Shown piece after piece: positions 1-9,200 of a stretch of DNA of 9,200 bases. Origin of the DNA: a virus (lineage: Duplodnaviria; Heunggongvirae; Uroviricota; Caudoviricetes); IMG/VR virus record IMGVR_UViG_2850808358_000007, positions 1 through 9,200 of that record; one strand, given 5' to 3'. A model generated the notes under the pieces. That model made no database searches and was not told the DNA's origin. It was given only the letters and a program-made list of their open reading frames with translations. The translations under genes were made by a program, and so were the position numbers. Numbering within the stretch: position 1 is the first letter of the stretch; the number at the start of each line of letters is the position of its first letter.

Positions 1-819
1 TTAAGCAGCCATCTGATGATATTTTTCCCTGAAGGCTGCCGGGGAGATATTCCCCAGACGAGAGTGACGACGCTGACGATTGTAGAAAATCTCAATGTAT
101 TCCCGTATTACTGAGATGGCTTCATCCCGGTTATTAAAACGATAGTGGCTCAGGCTCTCATTTTTCAGCGTTCCCCAGAAGCTTTCCATCGGAGCGTTGT
201 CGTAACAGTTACCTTTACGCGACATTGATGTTTTCAGACCAAACTGCTCCTGTATGACCCGGTAATCGTATGCGCAGTACTGTGAACCTCGATCAGAGTG
301 GTGGATTAGCCCGGCAGGTGGGCGCTGGCTCCTGAGCGCCATAAACAGGGCTTTACCTGTCAGCTCTTTTGTCATGCGCTCTCCCATGGCGTAGCCGACA
401 ATTTCGCACGTATAAACATCTTTGATGCCAGCGAGGTACAACCATCCCTCCTGTGTGGCAACATACGTCAGGTCCGCCACCCAGACCTGATTTGGTGCTG
501 TAGGAGCGAACGTCTGGTTCAGCAGATTTGGCGCAACTGGCAGATTGTGGTTCGGGTTCGTAGTCGCTCTGAACTTGCGTTTCTGCTTACAGCGTAGCCT
601 TAGCTCCTTACGAAGACGTGCCAGTCGGTCACGACCAACGATGATGCCATTCTCTGCCAGCTCCGTCTGGAGCCGCCGGGTTCCATATGTTTCGCGAGTG
701 CGGATATGTGCCACCTTAATCTCCAGTTTTAGCCGCTCATCACTTTGTTTTCTGTCTGAGGGTTCATGCTGTACCCGGTTGTAATAACCGCTCCTGGATA
801 CACCAAATACCTGACACAT
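1..819 (-). CDS. IS3-family transposase OrfB (DDE catalytic domain)
   Basis: 272-aa ORF with integrase-like DDE-region motifs (HSDRGSQY, CYDNAPMESFWGTLK). It is in the -1 frame relative to orfA, and that frame is open with no stop from the slippery site (~906) down to the ATG at 819. Confidence 0.85.
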   Translation of the reverse strand: MCQVFGVSRSGYYNRVQHEPSDRKQSDERLKLEIKVAHIRTRETYGTRRLQTELAENGIIVGRDRLARLRKELRLRCKQKRKFRATTNPNHNLPVAPNLLNQTFAPTAPNQVWVADLTYVATQEGWLYLAGIKDVYTCEIVGYAMGERMTKELTGKALFMALRSQRPPAGLIHHSDRGSQYCAYDYRVIQEQFGLKTSMSRKGNCYDNAPMESFWGTLKNESLSHYRFNNRDEAISVIREYIEIFYNRQRRHSRLGNISPAAFREKYHQMAA

Positions 820-1157
820 CGCTTCAATGGGAAATTGTTGTCGCCATTGTTCGATTAACGCGTATTTTTCAGCGACTCCTGTGCAAAATACGCTGTTGCT
901 TTTTTTAATATATCTCGCTCAAGGCGAGCTTCATTTAACGCCTTACGCAGTTGCAGAATTTCAGATTCCAGTTCAGCCACCGTGCGGGAACCAGGAGTAC
1001 CGAGCCCTTTTCTGGCGGCGGTAACCCATTGTCCTAAAGTGCCTTCAGGAAGGGATAATCGGGAAGCGCCTTCACTGATCGAAAGTTGATTTTCAAGAAC
1101 CGTTCTGACAGCTTCGGCTTTGAACTCTTTAGAGTAACGTTGGGTTTTTCTGCTCAT
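1..1157 (-). CDS. OrfAB transframe transposase (predicted -1 programmed frameshift product)
   Basis: Slippery heptamer A_AAA_AAA (minus strand, 906..900) sits in the orfA zero frame at codons Leu-Lys-Lys. After a -1 slip the frame reads ...KKSNSVFCTGVAEKYALIEQWRQQFPIEAMCQVFG... without a stop into orfB (translated by hand from the sequence). Confidence 0.65.
855..1157 (-). CDS. IS3-family transposase OrfA (DNA-binding N-terminal part)
   Basis: 100-aa ORF beginning MSRKTQRYSKEFKAEAV, with a C-terminal leucine-heptad region (LESEILQLRKALNEARLERDILKKATAYFA) typical of IS3-family OrfA. A GGAG Shine-Dalgarno lies about 8 nt upstream on the minus strand (reverse complement of 1162-1175). Confidence 0.85.
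   Translation of the reverse strand: MSRKTQRYSKEFKAEAVRTVLENQLSISEGASRLSLPEGTLGQWVTAARKGLGTPGSRTVAELESEILQLRKALNEARLERDILKKATAYFAQESLKNTR
900..906 (-). other. -1 programmed ribosomal frameshift slippery site (A AAA AAA G) of the IS transposase
   Basis: A run of 7 T on the plus strand at 900-906, i.e. 7 A on the minus strand, positioned in the orfA frame as X_XXY_YYZ. Confidence 0.6.
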
Positions 1158-1221
1158 TATTAGCTCCTTCTGATGCCATTCTATTTCAGGAAGGAGTGTC
1201 CGTTAAACTCAGGCTACCTCA

Positions 1222-2187: not shown

Positions 2188-2706
2188 ATGGCAATGCCGC
2201 GCAAACTCAAGTTAATGAACGTCTTTCTGAACGGCTACAGCTATCAGGGCGTTGCAAAGTCCGTCACGCTGCCAAAACTGACCCGTAAACTCGAAAACTA
2301 TCGCGGTGCGGGGATGAACGGAAGCGCACCGGTAGACCTCGGCCTTGATGACGATGCGCTGTCAATGGAGTGGTCGCTCGGGGGCTTCCCGGATTCGGTT
2401 ATCTGGGAGCTTTACGCCGCAACCGGTGTGGATGCCGTGCCGATTCGTTTTGCTGGCTCTTACCAGCGTGACGATACCGGCGAAACGGTGGCCGTAGAGG
2501 TGGTCATGCGTGGCCGTCAGAAAGAAATCGACACCGGCGAGGGTAAACAGGGAGAAGACACCGAGTCGAAAATCTCCGTGGTCTGCACCTATTTCCGGCT
2601 GACGATGGACGGTAAGGAGCTGGTCGAAATCGACACCATCAACATGATTGAGAAGGTGAACGGCGTCGACCGGCTGGAGCAACACCGCCGCAATATCGGC
2701 CTGTAA
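2188..2706 (+). CDS. FII: P2-like tail tube protein FII
   Basis: 172-aa ORF, the length I recall for P2 gpFII. AGGAG lies 8 nt upstream of the ATG. Position between FI and E is syntenic with P2. Confidence 0.88.
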   Translation: MAMPRKLKLMNVFLNGYSYQGVAKSVTLPKLTRKLENYRGAGMNGSAPVDLGLDDDALSMEWSLGGFPDSVIWELYAATGVDAVPIRFAGSYQRDDTGETVAVEVVMRGRQKEIDTGEGKQGEDTESKISVVCTYFRLTMDGKELVEIDTINMIEKVNGVDRLEQHRRNIGL

Positions 2707-2762: not shown

Positions 2763-3038
2763 ATGAACAAAGAAAATGTGATTACCCTGGACAATCCGGT
2801 CAAGCGTGGTGAGCAGGTTATCGAACAGGTCACGCTGATGAAACCCAGTGCGGGGACGCTGCGCGGTGTCAGTCTGGCTGCGGTCGCAAACTCAGAAGTC
2901 GATGCACTGATTAAGGTGCTGCCGCGCATGACGGCACCGATGCTGACCGAGCAGGAAGTCGCCGCGCTGGAACTGCCTGACCTTGTGGCGCTGGCTGGTA
3001 AGGTGGTCGGTTTTTTGTCGCCGAACTCGGTGCAGTAA
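2763..3038 (+). CDS. E: P2-like tail assembly chaperone gpE
   Basis: 91-aa ORF, the length I recall for P2 gpE, with the slippery heptamer T_TTT_TTG near its 3' end. Confidence 0.85.
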   Translation: MNKENVITLDNPVKRGEQVIEQVTLMKPSAGTLRGVSLAAVANSEVDALIKVLPRMTAPMLTEQEVAALELPDLVALAGKVVGFLSPNSVQ

Positions 3039-3190
3039 CGTTCCCGAAAAATCTGTCGGTCGATGACCTGATGGCGGATGTGGCAGTGATATTTCACTGG
3101 CCGCCATCAGAACTGTATCCCATGAGCCTGACCGAACTCATCACATGGCGCGAAAAGGCGCTCCGGCGAAGCGGAAACACAAATGAGTAA
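2763..3190 (+). CDS. E': gpE+E' transframe tail chaperone (predicted -1 frameshift at 3011-3017)
   Basis: T_TTT_TTG at 3011-3017 is in the E zero frame (codons Gly-Phe-Leu). By hand translation the -1 frame is then open to a TAA at 3188-3190, giving ~142 aa, the length I recall for P2 E+E'. Confidence 0.65.
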
Positions 3191-5609
3191 CAATGTAAAA
3201 TTACAGGTATTGCTCAGGGCTGTTGACCAGGCATCCCGCCCGTTTAAATCCATCCGCACAGCGAGTAAGTCGCTGTCGGGGATATCCGGGAAACACAAAA
3301 ATCACTGCGCGAGCTGAACGGTCACGCATCCCGTATTGAGGGATTCCGCAAGACCAGTGCACAGCTCGCCGTGACTGGTCATGCACTTGAAAAGGCACGG
3401 CAGGAGGCCGAAGCCCTTGCCACACAGTTTAAAAACACCGAACGTCCGACCCGTGCTCAGGCGAAAGTGCTGGAATCAGCAAAGCGAGCGGCGGAGGACT
3501 TACAGGCGAAATATAACCGCCTGACGGATTCCGTTAAACGCCAGCAGCGGGAACTGGCCGCTGTGGGAATTAATACCCGCAATCTTGCACATGATGAGCA
3601 GGGACTGAAAAACCGTATCAGTGAAACCACCGCACAGCTTAACCGACAACGTGACGCGCTGGCGCGTGTCAGTGCGCAACAGGCAAAACTTAACGCAGTA
3701 AAACAGCGTTATCAGGCAGGCAAGGAACTGGCCGGAAATATGGCCTCAGTGGGCGCTGCCGGTGTGGGGATTGCTGCTGCGGGAACAATGGCCGGAGTTA
3801 AGCTACTGATGCCCGGTTATGAGTTTGCGCAGAAAAACTCAGAATTGCAGGCCGTGCTCGGAGTGGCAAAAGACTCTGCCGAAATGGCTGCACTACGCAA
3901 GCAGGCGCGCCAGCTCGGCGGACGATGCAGCCGGTGCGCAGATTATCATTGCGAAAGCGGGTGGAGATGCTGCGGCTATTCAGGCGGCAACGCCGGTCAC
4001 GCTGAATATGGCACTGGCGAATCAGCGGACGATGGAAGAAAACGCGCAACTGTTGCTGGGGACTAAGGCATCCTTTCAACTGTCAAATGATGATGTCAGC
4101 CATGTGGGCGACGTGTTGTCAGCAACGATGAATAAGTCGGCGGCTGATTTTCAGGGACTCAGTGATGCACTGACTTACCTCGGTCCGGTTGCGAGGACGG
4201 CAGGTGTAAGTCTTGAGCAGGCAGCGGCCATGACAGGTGTGCTGCATGACAATAACATCAGGGGGTCAATGGCGGGTACGGGTAGTAGTGCCGTTGTCAC
4301 CCGATTACAGGCTCCGACAGGGAAAGCATGGGAAGCACTAAAAGAGCTTGGCGTTAAAACCTCGGACAAAAAGGGAAATATGCGTCCGTTGTTCACCATT
4401 CTGAAAGAGATTCAGGTCAGCTTTGATAAACACAAGCTGGGAACGTCTCAGAAGGGGGAATACCTTAAAACCATTTTTGGTGAGGAAGCCCTGAAATCAG
4501 CGAACGTTTTACTGGCAGCGGCTGCAAGCGGAAAACTGGATAAGCTGACCGCCACGCTGAAAGCCTCGGACGGTAAAACGGAAGAGCTGGTTAAAATCAT
4601 GCAGGACAACCTCGGCGGTGACTTTAAGGAGTTTCAGTCCGCTTATGAGGCGGTGGGGACTGACCTGTTTGACCAGCAGGAAGGCGCACTGCGTAATCTC
4701 ACGCAGACGGCCACAAAGTATGTGTTAAAACTCGACGGCTGGATCCAGAAAAACAAATCACTGGCGTCAACCATCGGCATCATTGTCGGTGGTGCACTGG
4801 CGCTGACTGGTGTCATCGGTGCCATTGGCCTCGTAGCCTGGCCGGTTATCACCGGCATCAATGCCATTATCGCGGCAGCAGGCGCAATGGGGGCAATCTT
4901 CACGACGGTTGGCAGTGCTGTTATGACGGCCATCGGGGCGATTAGCTGGCCGGTTGTGGCCGTGGTGGCTGCAATTGTCGCCGGGGCGTTGCTTATCCGT
5001 AAATACTGGGAGCCTGTCAGCGCATTCTTTGGCGGTGTGGTGGAAGGGCTGAAAGCGGCATTTGCGCCGGTGGGGGAACTGTTCGCGCCACTTAAGCCGG
5101 TGTTTGACTGGCTGGGTGAAAAGTTACAGGCCGCGTGGCAGTGGTTTAAAAACCTGATTGCCCCCGTCAAAGCCACCCAGGACACCCTGAACCGTTGCCG
5201 TGATACGGGCGTCATGTTCGGGCAGGCACTGGCTGACGCGCTGATGCTGCCGCTTAATGCGTTCAACAAACTGCGCAGCGGCATTGACTGGGTACTGGAA
5301 AAACTCGGTGTTATCAACAAAGAGTCAGACACACTTGACCAGACCGCCGCCAGAACTCATGCCGCCACGTATGGCAACGGTGGTTATATTCCGGCGACCA
5401 GCTCTTATGCAGGCTATCAGGCTTATCAGCCGGTCACGGTACCGGCTGGTCGCTCTTATGTGGACCAGAGTAAAAACGAATATCACATCAGCCTGACGGG
5501 TGGTACTGCGCCGGGGACACAGCTTGACCGCCAGTTACAGGATGCGCTCGAAAAATACGAGCGGGATAAACGTGCGCGCGCCCGTGCCAGCATGATGCAT
5601 GACGGTTAA
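3183..5609 (+). pseudogene. T: P2-like tail tape measure protein gpT, disrupted by two reading-frame changes
   Basis: Three colinear frame segments: ATG at 3183 (MSNNVKLQVLLRAVDQ...) stops at 3315-3317; a second frame is open from 3269 to 4066; a third runs 3819-5609. All read as continuous tape-measure-like sequence (coiled-coil N-terminus, Gly/Ala/Ile-rich hydrophobic segment, C-terminus ...YERDKRARARASMMHDG). The 2427-nt span is close to the 815 codons I recall for P2 gpT. Confidence 0.7.
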
Positions 5610-5623
5610 GGAGGTGACGAAAA

Positions 5624-6103
5624 GTGATGCTCGCGTTAGGTATGTTTGTTTTTATGCGCCAGACGCTGCCACACCAGACCATGCAGCGTGAATCAGATTA
5701 TCGCTGGCCGTCAAATTCCCGTATCGGTAAACGGGATGCCTACCAGTTTCTCGGTGTGGGTGAGGAAAACATGACGCTTGCCGGCGTGCTTTATCCCGAA
5801 CTGACCGGCGGGAAGCTGACGATGACCACGCTCAGGCTGATGGCAGAGGAAGGCCGGGCGTGGCCGTTGCTGGATGGCACTGGCATGATTTACGGCATGT
5901 ATATCGTCAGCAAGGTGAGTGAAACAGGGAGTATTTTCTTTGCAGACGGCACACCCCGGAAAATTGATTTTACGCTGTCACTCACCCGCGTTGATGAATC
6001 ACTGGCCGCGCTTTATGGCGATATCGGTAAACAGGCGGAATCGCTCATCGGTAAGGCTGGCAGTATGGCGACCAGATTCACGGGTATGACGGGGGCGGGA
6101 TAA
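5624..6103 (+). CDS. U: P2-like tail protein gpU
   Basis: 159-aa ORF, the length I recall for P2 gpU, starting at GTG 5624 followed by ATG 5627. GGAGGT at 5610-5615 is 8 nt upstream. Its stop overlaps the D start (TAATG). Confidence 0.85.
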   Translation: MMLALGMFVFMRQTLPHQTMQRESDYRWPSNSRIGKRDAYQFLGVGEENMTLAGVLYPELTGGKLTMTTLRLMAEEGRAWPLLDGTGMIYGMYIVSKVSETGSIFFADGTPRKIDFTLSLTRVDESLAALYGDIGKQAESLIGKAGSMATRFTGMTGAG

Positions 6104-7266
6104 TGCTGGATGCGCTGACATTTGATGCAGGCAGTACGCTGACGCCGGATTACATGCTGATGCTCGACAGCAGGGATATTACCGGCAATATCAGCGACCG
6201 TCTGATGAGCATGACCCTGACGGATAACCGGGGCTTTGAGGCTGACCAGCTTGATATTGAACTGAACGACGCCGACGGGCAGGTAGGGCTACCGGTTCGT
6301 GGCGCTGTCCTGACGGTGTATATCGGCTGGAAAGGTTTTGCCCTGGTATGCAAAGGGAAATTTACCGTTGATGAGGTTGAACACCGGGGCGCACCGGATG
6401 TGGTCACCATCCGCGCCCGGAGTGCAGATTTTCGCGGGACGCTCAATTCCCGCCGTGAAGGCTCCTGGCATGACACCACGCTCGGTGCGATTGTTGAGGC
6501 GATAGCCTCCCGTAACAGGCTGGAAGCCAGTGTCGCGCCGTCACTGGCAGGAATTAAAATCCCGCACATCGACCAGTCGCAGGAGTCTGATGCGAAATTC
6601 CTGACCCGCCTTGCTGAACGCAACGGCGGTGAGGTGTCGGTAAAAATGGGAAAACTGTTGTTTCTCAAAGCGGGGCAGGGGGTGACGGCCAGCGGTAAAA
6701 AAATCCCGCAGATTACCATCACCCGCAGCGACGGCGACCGTCATCATTTTGCGATTGCTGACCGTGGAGCTTACACCGGCGTAACGGCAAAGTGGTTACA
6801 CACCAAAGACCCGAAGCCGCAAAAGCAGAAGGTAAAACTGAAACGCAAAAAGAAAGAAAAACACCTGCGCGCACTGGAGCACCCGAAAGCGAAACCGGTC
6901 ACGCAGAAGAAAGCGCCAAAAGTACCGGAAGCGCGCGAAGGTGAATACATGGCCGGTGAAGCTGACAACGTTTTTGCCCTGACTACGGTATATGCCACGA
7001 AAGCACAGGCCATGCGCGCCGCTCAGGCGAAGTGGGATAAACTGCAACGGGGCGTTGCGGAGTTCTCCATCAGCCTTGCCACTGGTCGTGCTGATATTTA
7101 CACGGAAACACCGGTCAGAGTGTCAGGCTTTAAGCGCGTCATAGACGAGCAGGACTGGACAATCACTAAGGTGACACATTTTCTGAATAATAGCGGCTTC
7201 ACGACGTCCTTGGAGCTTGAGGTCAGGCTTTCTGATGTGGAGTACGAAACAGAAGATGATGAGTAA
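6103..7266 (+). CDS. D: P2-like tail protein gpD
   Basis: 387-aa ORF, the length I recall for P2 gpD. Start is translationally coupled to the U stop, and position is syntenic with P2. It contains an internal Lys-rich linker. Confidence 0.88.
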   Translation: MLDALTFDAGSTLTPDYMLMLDSRDITGNISDRLMSMTLTDNRGFEADQLDIELNDADGQVGLPVRGAVLTVYIGWKGFALVCKGKFTVDEVEHRGAPDVVTIRARSADFRGTLNSRREGSWHDTTLGAIVEAIASRNRLEASVAPSLAGIKIPHIDQSQESDAKFLTRLAERNGGEVSVKMGKLLFLKAGQGVTASGKKIPQITITRSDGDRHHFAIADRGAYTGVTAKWLHTKDPKPQKQKVKLKRKKKEKHLRALEHPKAKPVTQKKAPKVPEAREGEYMAGEADNVFALTTVYATKAQAMRAAQAKWDKLQRGVAEFSISLATGRADIYTETPVRVSGFKRVIDEQDWTITKVTHFLNNSGFTTSLELEVRLSDVEYETEDDE

Positions 7267-7347
7267 TGTTTTTATTTTATCTGTTTGTTTTATAAGGATA
7301 AATTAACTAAAATGGCACCGTCAACAAAACCGGAAGAGGTGCTCGCG

Positions 7348-7566
7348 ATGTTTCATTGTCCTTTATGCCAGCATGCCGCACATGCGCGTACAAGCCGCTA
7401 TATCACTGACACGACAAAAGAGCGTTATCACCAGTGTCAGAACGTGAATTGCAGCGCCACGTTCATCACTTATGAGTCGGTACAGCGATACATCGTGAAG
7501 CCGGGAGAAGTCCACGCCGTAAGACCGCACCCGTTGCCGTCAGGGCAGCAAATTATGTGGATGTAA
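7348..7566 (+). CDS. ogr: Ogr, zinc-finger late gene transcription activator
   Basis: 72-aa product MFHCPLCQHAAHARTSRYITDTTKERYHQCQNVNCSATF... with Cys at 4, 7, 30 and 35 (a Cys4 zinc finger), matching my recollection of P2 Ogr and E. coli K-12 OgrK. GAGG lies ~8 nt upstream of this ATG. The tracked ORF starts further upstream at 7285, but that extension has no ribosome-binding site support. Confidence 0.9.
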   Translation: MFHCPLCQHAAHARTSRYITDTTKERYHQCQNVNCSATFITYESVQRYIVKPGEVHAVRPHPLPSGQQIMWM

Positions 7567-7578
7567 TTACAAACAGGA

Positions 7579-7603
7579 AGCCCCTCAGTCGAGGGGCTTT
7601 TTT
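7579..7603 (+). terminator. Rho-independent terminator downstream of ogr
   Basis: GC-rich perfect inverted repeat GCCCCTC (7580-7586) / GAGGGGC (7591-7597) with a 4-nt loop, followed by a run of 6 T (7598-7603), 13 nt after the ogr stop. Confidence 0.75.
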
Positions 7604-7667
7604 GTCGATGTGGTCAATGTGTGGACGTGACCAGAAATAAATCCTTTTATTTCATTGTATTACGCGT

Positions 7668-7694
7668 AAAAAATAAGCCCGTGTAAGGGAGATT
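7668..7694 (+). other. Putative P2 attachment-site core (attR) marking the prophage/host boundary
   Basis: AAAAAATAAGCCCGTGTAAGGGAGATT matches my recollection of the 27-bp P2 att core. It lies immediately after ogr and its terminator, where attP sits in the P2 genome, and before host yegQ. Recollection only, unverified. Confidence 0.55.
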
Positions 7695-7838
7695 ACACAG
7701 GCTAAGGAGGTGGTTCCTGGTACAGCTAGCATTTTATGGGTTATGTTTTTCAGCGAAACGGATGATAACCTTAATAAATGCAGCTGTATGTGATCGGTTT
7801 CTAAGAATTTTCCATCCGGGAAAAATAATCGAAATTAA

Positions 7839-9200
7839 TCACTTACCGTGGGGGTTACGCGTGGTTTCCCCGGAGAAATTACGCATTAGCAGCGCGTAAT
7901 TTAGCTCAAGATCCTGCGGGACCGGGAGCCACACAGTATAACCATCGCCTGGTGCGACCGGCATAGCTTCGCCTTTGGCGTTTTCCATGTGCTCAAGGGT
8001 AAAGTTAATGTTGCCTTGCGGCGTCATCAGCTCAAGACTGTCGCCAACGGAGAATTTATTTTTCACCGCTACCGCTGCGAGGTCCCCCTTGCGCTCACCG
8101 GTAAACTCACCAACAAACTGCTGGCGGTCAGAAACTGAATAACCGTATTCGTAGTTCTGATAATCGTCGTGAGTATGACGACGCAGGAAACCTTCGGTAT
8201 AGCCACGATGCGCCAGACCTTCCAGAGTTTCCAGCAGGCTGGTATCGAACGGTTTTCCCGCAGCGGCGTCATCGATAGCTTTGCGGTAAACCTGTGCGGT
8301 GCGTGCGCAATAGTAGAAAGATTTGGTACGACCTTCGATTTTCAGCGAATGCACGCCCATTTTGGTCAGGCGTTCTACATGGGCGATGGCGCGCAGATCT
8401 TTCGAGTTCATGATGTAAGTGCCGTGCTCATCTTCAAACGCGGTCATATACTCGCCAGGACGCTGGGCCTCTTCGATCATAAACACTTTGTCGGTTGGCG
8501 CGCCGATACCCAGCGTCGGCTCAACATTTTGCACCGGAATCGGCTCGTACTTGTGTACGATGTTGCCAACGTCATCTTCTTTCCCTTCCTGGACGTTGTA
8601 CTCCCAGCGGCAGGCGTTGGTGCAGGTACCCTGGTTCGGATCGCGCTTGTTGATATAGCCAGAGAGCAGGCAGCGACCGGAGTAGGCCATGCACAGTGCG
8701 CCGTGAACGAAGATCTCGATCTCCATATCCGGCACCTGATTGCGGATCTCTTCAATCTCTTCAAGCGACAGCTCGCGAGAGAGGATCACGCGGGTCAGGC
8801 CCATTTGCTGCCAGAATTTCACCGTCGCCCAGTTTACGGCGTTAGCCTGCACCGAGAGGTGGATCGGCATTTCAGGGAAGTGCTCACGCACCAGCATAAT
8901 CAGCCCTGGATCGGACATAATCAGCGCATCCGGCCCCATTTCCACCACCGGTTTCAGGTCACAGATAAAGGTTTTCAGCTTGGCGTTGTGCGGTGCAATG
9001 TTGACCACGACATAAAACTTTTTCCCCAGCGCGTGGGCTTCATTGATGCCGAGCTGAAGATTTTCGTGGTTGAATTCGTTGTTGCGCACACGTAGGGAGT
9101 AACGCGGCTGGCCCGCATAAACAGCATCTGCGCCATAAGCGAAAGCGTAACGCATATTTTTCAGCGTTCCCGCCGGGGAAAGGAGTTCCGGTTTAAACAT
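7839..9200 (-). CDS. yegQ: Peptidase U32 family protein YegQ (TrhP, linked to tRNA U34 hydroxylation)
   Basis: 453-aa ORF, MFKPELLSPAGTLKNMRYAFAYGADAVYAGQPRYSLRVRNNEFNHENL..., matching the length and sequence I recall for E. coli YegQ. The start codon is at the last base of the window. A convergent ogrK lies next to yegQ in E. coli K-12. Confidence 0.9.
   Translation of the reverse strand: MFKPELLSPAGTLKNMRYAFAYGADAVYAGQPRYSLRVRNNEFNHENLQLGINEAHALGKKFYVVVNIAPHNAKLKTFICDLKPVVEMGPDALIMSDPGLIMLVREHFPEMPIHLSVQANAVNWATVKFWQQMGLTRVILSRELSLEEIEEIRNQVPDMEIEIFVHGALCMAYSGRCLLSGYINKRDPNQGTCTNACRWEYNVQEGKEDDVGNIVHKYEPIPVQNVEPTLGIGAPTDKVFMIEEAQRPGEYMTAFEDEHGTYIMNSKDLRAIAHVERLTKMGVHSLKIEGRTKSFYYCARTAQVYRKAIDDAAAGKPFDTSLLETLEGLAHRGYTEGFLRRHTHDDYQNYEYGYSVSDRQQFVGEFTGERKGDLAAVAVKNKFSVGDSLELMTPQGNINFTLEHMENAKGEAMPVAPGDGYTVWLPVPQDLELNYALLMRNFSGETTRNPHGK

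Follow-up and report, generated by a model that had tools for sequence, protein, structure and literature searches.

P2 and related elements at the cyaR locus

The integrase of phage P2 is a heterobivalent tyrosine recombinase that binds both the core of the attachment site and arm-type repeats flanking it, with IHF bending the P arm. The locus at the 3′ end of the small RNA gene cyaR is the classical P2 site locI, and a remnant consisting of ogr and a fragment of gene D (D′) was reportedly described at locI in E. coli K-12 in the early 1990s. According to a table in Archer et al. 2011 (PMC3032704), the P2-type elements of strains W, K-12 (ogr-D′) and B are inserted at 'cyaR RNA', and this table is the only explicit statement about CyaR and P2 attachment that our literature searches returned.

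We have analyzed a stretch of 9,200 nucleotides (the window) that is identical to positions 8774–17973 of segment L006 of its source chromosome, CP026877.1 (assembly GCA_002950035.1), which was identified through an exact match to the truncated FI protein. Positions 7604–7694 of the window almost certainly constitute an attR (P arm and core) that arose when a P2-type phage (Peduovirus) integrated at locI, the 3′ end of cyaR, and nothing that we have found contradicts this identification. The junction itself is known biology, as P2 locI, the ogrK remnant of K-12 and the use of cyaR as a P2 target are all established. The window shares with P2 attP (AF063097) the core, the Int arm site, the spacing between elements and the order D, ogr, terminator, P arm, core; it differs in having five substitutions in the IHF region, in being a recombined junction of the form P-O-B′, and in lacking int and cox. 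The K-12 remnant, like that in the window, lies between yegR and cyaR-yegQ, has a base-identical attR, retains ogr and has no integrase, whereas it comprises only ~0.6 kb with a truncated attL core, compared with ~6.5 kb of tail genes, an IS600 element, and a complete attL core and P′ arm for the element described here.

A P2-type attR downstream of ogr

The features of the phage side of the junction are as follows.

7348–7566, plus strand: ogr, encoding a late-gene activator of 72 amino acids with a zinc finger, apparently intact (Pfam Ogr_Delta, E 2e-21; aligns with P2 ogr, 24036–24254)
7577–7600, plus strand: rho-independent terminator of ogr and the F operon (P2 'terminator', 24265–24288, with one mismatch; also found by a hairpin scan)
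7605–7632, plus strand: putative Int arm-type site of the P arm (28/28 identical to P2 'Int, P arm', 24293–24320)
7636–7669, plus strand: variant allele of the predicted IHF region in the P arm (P2 'IHF', 24324–24357)
7668–7694, plus strand: common core (O), 27 bp, of the P2-type attR junction (every base as in the P2 attP core; its minus strand is the last 27 nucleotides of cyaR)

The core reads AAAAAATAAGCCCGTGTAAGGGAGATT on the plus strand, and all 27 of its positions are identical to AF063097 24356–24382, which is annotated in the P2 genome as 'attP' and 'Int, attP core'. The initial annotation had recognized this 27-mer as the P2 att core, and the perfect alignment confirms it. The sequence occurs once in the window even when up to three mismatches are allowed, and not at all in 200 shuffles. 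It begins 101 nucleotides beyond the ogr stop codon (7566), the same spacing as in P2, and the pairwise alignment of the window with AF063097 from ogr to the core has a constant offset of −16688 and zero indels; the placement of the core to the right of ogr, as in P2 attP, is thus correct.

The interval 7604–7667 is AT-rich, with a G+C content of 39% compared with 53.6% for the whole window, and it had been proposed as the phage-side arm. Alignment with the P2 P arm bears this out, as there are just five mismatches and all of them lie within 7655–7664, in the IHF region; between the terminator and the core the only other departure from P2 is a single base within the ogr/F operon terminator, GAAGCCCCTCAGTCGAGGGGCTTTTTTG. 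The Int arm site contains two direct repeats 11 bp apart, TGTGGTCA (7609–7616) and TGTGGACG (7620–7627), both of which fit the published consensus for P2-type Int arm sites, tgTGGaCa (PMC3448106). From these matches we infer that the arm and the core would be bound by the same proteins as their P2 counterparts. Phage P24C9, which was sequenced as a phage, differs from the window by one base across the 75 nucleotides to the left of the core, outside the variable IHF stretch, and has an identical core and a P′ arm of the P2 type; in E. coli K-12 there is no difference from the window across the 75 nucleotides to the left of the core, the core itself, and the 75 nucleotides to the right. The IHF-region variant is no indication of decay, as P24C9 and K-12 carry the same allele as the window.

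Limits of phage and host sequence

The extent of phage sequence is seen directly in the breakpoints of homology. A megablast search of 7270–7840 against 50,697 phage records matched 76 of them, and the alignments to the best bona fide phage genomes, P2 included, all end at query base 425, corresponding to window position 7694; in the pairwise alignment, identity to P2 likewise collapses straight after the core. The interval 7560–7860 was matched by 5,424 of the 5,426 complete E. coli genomes, and the complete ogr/core/cyaR/yegQ junction is present in 1,273 of the 5,426 (23%), among them K-12 with its ogrK. In the sampled matches from the remaining E. coli genomes, homology begins either at query base 109 (window 7668), where the core starts, or at query base 101 (window 7660). 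There are two classes because some attB alleles have TTACGCGT to the left of the core, which extends the match to the phage P arm by eight bases, so that 35 bp (7660–7694) are common to the phage and these alleles. Two prophage-free E. coli sites (L004 and L005) have the order yegR, core, cyaR, yegQ.

Host sequence had been placed from about 7695 onward, and this agrees with both sets of alignments, as phage homology stops at 7694 and prophage-free E. coli matches continue from there; alignment to unoccupied sites, a check proposed at the outset, gave matches starting at 7668 or 7660. The right boundary is not, however, defined to the base, as had been claimed: 27 bp (35 bp for some attB alleles) are common to phage and host, and the exchange point thus falls somewhere inside the core. 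Phage-specific sequence extends to 7667 (or 7659) and host-specific sequence starts at 7695.

Natural core variants did not help to locate strand exchange within the core. The attL core of strain 4/1-1 (L003 35642–35668) has a C-to-T change at core position 13, with a canonical core at attR, and a scan of viral contigs for this variant returned two attL junctions (L032 and L033) from the same host type and no free attP; the variant is confined to attL junctions and is uninformative. We note that the attL core copy in 4/1-1 is outside the functional cyaR, and so may drift freely. A candidate core fragment in the B arm of L005, AAGGGAGATT, was also set aside, as the stretch differs among strains (AAGGGGGATT and AAGGAGGATT).

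The same locus recurs in viral sequence collections. Many predicted P2-like prophage contigs in IMG/VR (L034–L113) start or finish at yegR, and two INPHARED entries, 'Phage TP' (AY639599) and vB_EcoM-720R8 (ON470606), contain yegR and/or yegQ; the presence of these genes in phage records points to host flank at the cyaR locus having been deposited as phage sequence. A diverged P2-like P arm (GGAAGTGGTCAATGTGTGGACATTGAGAG...) stands next to the same exact core in Kluyvera intermedia and in a record designated E. coli ECDA1023 (L010 and L028), and cyaR is therefore a target of P2-like phages with other arms beyond E. coli as well. A number of the CP178xxx and CP182xxx assemblies seem rich in indels.

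Overlap of the core with cyaR

A single minus-strand gene, cyaR, is made up of the core together with the 'host sequence' adjoining it on the right, a point absent from the initial annotation. The host features are as follows.

7668–7756, minus strand: cyaR (ryeE), a host gene for an Hfq-type small RNA, its body being host DNA (7695–7756) and its 3′ end the att core
7676–7703, minus strand: intrinsic terminator hairpin of CyaR, with an 11-bp stem and a 6-nucleotide loop (terminator scan, RNA fold and Rfam structure line)
7839–9200, minus strand: yegQ/trhP, the host gene next to cyaR and a member of the peptidase U32 family (Pfam Peptidase_U32, E 1.4e-88; RefSeq annotation of matching genomes)

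Rfam family RF00112 (CyaR/RyeE) matches 7671–7756 on the minus strand at 100.7 bits, relative to a gathering threshold of 47 (E 9e-20), and the match is full length, covering model positions 1–85 of 85. The cyaR sequence is identical to those of K-12 and the empty-site strains. Its terminator folds at −20 kcal/mol (z −2.9), and the hairpin is followed by a U-tail, UAUUUUUU, that reaches 7668. Of this terminator, the final two bases of the 5′ stem arm, the loop, the entire 3′ arm and the U-tail thus all come from the core, with 7695–7703 being the host-only portion of the stem. The P arm is thereby bracketed by two convergent terminators, that of ogr at 7577–7600 and that of cyaR at 7703–7668. 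A search for a CRP-box pattern upstream of cyaR gave no match.

The cyaR-yegQ order is kept in 19 further occurrences in Escherichia, Shigella, Kluyvera and Enterobacter, and the exact 27-mer also terminates cyaR in Kluyvera spp., Enterobacter hormaechei and E. ruysiae. Overlap of the core with the 3′ end of cyaR explains why this site is both conserved and used. Recombination of the attP core with its 27-bp counterpart in the end of cyaR, identical in sequence, generates attL (B-O-P′) and attR (P-O-B′), and because the phage core is exactly the last 27 nucleotides of the gene, the phage-borne copy of the terminator loop, 3′ stem arm and U-tail restores an intact cyaR at attR. Phages that integrate at the 3′ ends of tRNA, tmRNA and sRNA genes likewise carry a replacement 3′ end for the RNA gene, and the arrangement here is in this respect nothing unusual.

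A truncated prophage at the cyaR locus

The remainder of the window is occupied by an insertion sequence and a series of P2-type tail genes.

1–1221, minus strand: IS600 (IS3 family), of which 1,221 of 1,264 bp are in the window, the whole element being L006 8731–9994
1222–2175, plus strand: FI, tail sheath gene, truncated and without codons 1–27 (tblastn matches residues 28–396 of an intact FI at 1222–2172; Phage_sheath domains)
2188–2706, plus strand: FII (Pfam Phage_tube)
2763–3038, plus strand: E (Pfam Phage_TAC_7), with the slippery sequence TTTTTTG at 3011–3017, near the end of the gene
3183–5609, plus strand: T, tape-measure gene, disrupted (three tblastn segments, in frames 3, 2 and 3)
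5624–6103, plus strand: U (Pfam Phage_P2_GpU)
6103–7266, plus strand: D (Pfam Phage_GPD)

In CP026877.1 the gene order is, from the left, the gat operon, gatR, yegS, yegR, attL (core, P′ arm and int stub) and IS600, followed by FI′, FII, E, T′, U, D, ogr, attR (P arm and core/cyaR), yegQ, yegP, IS4 and baeR. An attL core roughly a prophage length upstream had been predicted, and a search of the rest of the genome for the 27-mer does reveal an exact second copy at the other end of the element (L006 8464–8490), ~0.3 kb to the left of the window. The predicted distance does not hold, as the two cores are 7,977 bp apart, compared with 33,583 bp (~33 kb) in strain 4/1-1, where an intact prophage occupies this site between yegR and yegQ. 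The attL core is followed by 241 nucleotides that are 100% identical to P2 and contain the P′ arm, with its Cox region and Int P′ repeats, as well as ~160 nucleotides from the 3′ end of int, so that core, P′ arm and int 3′ end together form 268 nucleotides of complete identity.

The IS600 element lies between this int stub and codon 28 of FI. It is 1,264 bp long, with termini TGAGGT...ACCTCA that form imperfect terminal inverted repeats of the TG...CA type, encodes orfA (HTH_Tnp_1) and orfB (rve), and is 99% identical to annotated IS600 copies. We looked for a 3-bp target-site duplication at its ends and did not find one, the flanks being ATAC on the int side and GTCG on the FI side. The missing duplication is no argument against the IS600 identity; rather, because the duplication is missing and the two flanks are ~25 kb apart in an intact prophage, the arrangement indicates an IS-associated deletion and not a simple insertion, and it is likely that roughly 25 kb of prophage was lost in this manner. 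IS600-mediated prophage decay is typical of Shigella-like genomes, and the IS600 and IS4 content of the source chromosome hints that it may itself be of the Shigella type. The IS600/FI′ junction was found in none of the 5,426 complete E. coli genomes, where the best matches begin at 1222 with ~97% identity, and it was found only in CP026877.1 and a few Logan short-read assemblies.

The tail gene order FII-E-T-U-D is that of P2 and strain 4/1-1, and FII, E, U, D and ogr all look intact. Two deletions disrupt T, one of 20 nucleotides near 3919 and one of a single nucleotide in a G-run near 3278–3282; together they remove 21 nucleotides, and the reading frame is thus regained downstream. Two independent short-read assemblies share the 20-nucleotide deletion, and the single-nucleotide deletion is found just in CP026877.1, where it may be an assembly or homopolymer sequencing error. 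P2 makes E+E′ by a programmed −1 frameshift, and we note that the slippery TTTTTTG heptamer of gene E is conserved in the remnant.

The cognate module for integration and excision is absent: int is a ~160-nucleotide 3′ stub, cox is deleted, and IS600 comes next. With int reduced and cox lost, we infer that the element would be unable to excise by itself. It is a dead remnant of ~8 kb, and its attR is a relic attachment site rather than part of a working module. IS600 stands in place of everything between an internal point of int and FI codon 27, and T is broken, but both att junctions remain sequence-perfect.

Alternative explanations

The sequence-perfect attR, the intact appearance of ogr, D, U, FII and E, and the occurrence of the same junction in strains with intact prophages, such as 4/1-1, could be taken to mean that the window contains the right end of an intact, inducible P2 prophage of ~33 kb, with attL one prophage length upstream. 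We consider this very improbable, and for CP026877.1 it is refuted by the succession of yegR, attL, 160-nucleotide int stub, IS600 and FI′ within the 7,977 bp that separate the cores; IS600 abuts codon 28 of FI, and independent assemblies agree on the 20-nucleotide deletion in T. We give even less credence to the idea that the 27-mer is merely the terminator of host cyaR in an unoccupied attB, with its P2 match being uninformative about a prophage. It is true that cyaR has this 27-mer at its end in prophage-free E. coli also, that the Rfam match covers the core, and that Kluyvera and Enterobacter loci carry the 27-mer beside left flanks unlike the P2 P arm. However, the core in the window is immediately preceded by the P arm and by ogr with its terminator and the tail genes, which are 97–99.8% identical to phages, and empty sites differ from the window to the left of the core; the reading is refuted because 7270–7667 is phage DNA.

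It also seems highly unlikely that the element is the cryptic P2 remnant of K-12 (ogrK and the D′ pseudogene, yegZ), inherited vertically. The two have identical attR sequences (75 nucleotides of P arm, the core and cyaR), both are without int, and they occupy the same site, but K-12 keeps just the last ~70 codons of D together with ogr, and its left junction consists of the first ~19 nucleotides of the attL core fused to D′. The element in the window, unlike that of K-12, runs from FI′ through ogr and has a complete attL with its P′ arm as well as IS600. The two remnants thus represent different deletion events, and possibly different integration events. In the K-12 derivative JW5503 (L031, ~1975–2000), the ~19 nucleotides of attL core (AAAAAAATAAGCCCGTGTA) are fused directly to D′, and this deletion endpoint inside the core could reflect an aberrant Int-mediated event.

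A possible older relic around yegR

Beyond the attR of the IS600-truncated P2-type element, a comparison of the host flanks reveals a further resemblance to P2. In empty sites, the host sequence to the left of the core is similar to the P2 P arm, and so is that on the left side of attL in lysogens. In all six of the aligned sequences (6/6), TCGATGTGGTCAATG is invariant and is followed by G..GAC.GT.A.CAG; the similarity has z values of 7 to 11 relative to shuffles and amounts to 48 of 66 positions in L006, with the stretch being ~16 nucleotides shorter in L004 and L005. One perfect Int arm repeat, TCGATGTGGTCAATG, is thus retained in this P-arm-like stretch.

Kluyvera, Enterobacter and E. ruysiae are without yegR and the arm-like stretches, and in these yegS adjoins the core and cyaR, followed by yegQ; the gap between yegS and the core in E. 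ruysiae is less than 100 nucleotides. Next to yegS, the E. coli sequence can be aligned with the flank in E. ruysiae as far as the start of the core, at which point E. coli has AAAAAGTCAGTTCAAGTATGGAGGATT. This sequence matches the core at 18 of 27 positions, a match equalled anywhere in only 0.4% of shuffles of the 405-bp interval, and it is followed by a stretch resembling the P′ arm, for which z is 7.7 when the core is included and a marginal 4.2 without it. The resulting layout of E. coli and Shigella, a degenerate core (core*), P′-like stretch, yegR, P-like stretch and core, is the same in L003, L004, L005 and L006 (L006 7658–8463) and has the topology of a prophage, so that the E. coli 'attB' can be read as an older attR. 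We therefore lean towards the view that the 'unoccupied' locI of E. coli is itself the attR of an older P2-like prophage of ~0.8 kb that has decayed almost entirely, of which yegR is the only surviving gene.

YegR homologues in the phage collection are confined to two records, both of which contain host flank. There are 109 YegR relatives in IMG/VR, and the 80 of these 109 that were retained are 95–99% identical and mostly lie close to or at the termini of contigs predicted as prophage; they have the appearance of host sequence that prophage callers took in from the flank, and an origin of yegR as a cargo gene is supported neither way by them. A literature search for a yegR relic found no paper describing it, an absence that does not establish novelty.

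Implications

For annotation, these comparisons set the right limit of a P2-type remnant, identify the adjoining 'intergenic' DNA as cyaR, and indicate that the prophage is not inducible. The locus also illustrates clearly how a phage can bring with it a substitute for the 3′ end of an RNA gene. There is no new biology in the attR itself, and the sole point that is possibly new is the apparent fossil of an earlier P2-like integration at the E. coli attB flank that includes yegR. If that reading is correct, the genome from which the window derives has a tandem arrangement of P2-type remnants from two generations at cyaR, and the arm repeat kept next to attB might affect the efficiency of present-day P2 integration. 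It would also mean that one sRNA-gene hotspot has been subject to repeated use and decay, and would provide an origin for the orphan lipoprotein-like gene yegR.
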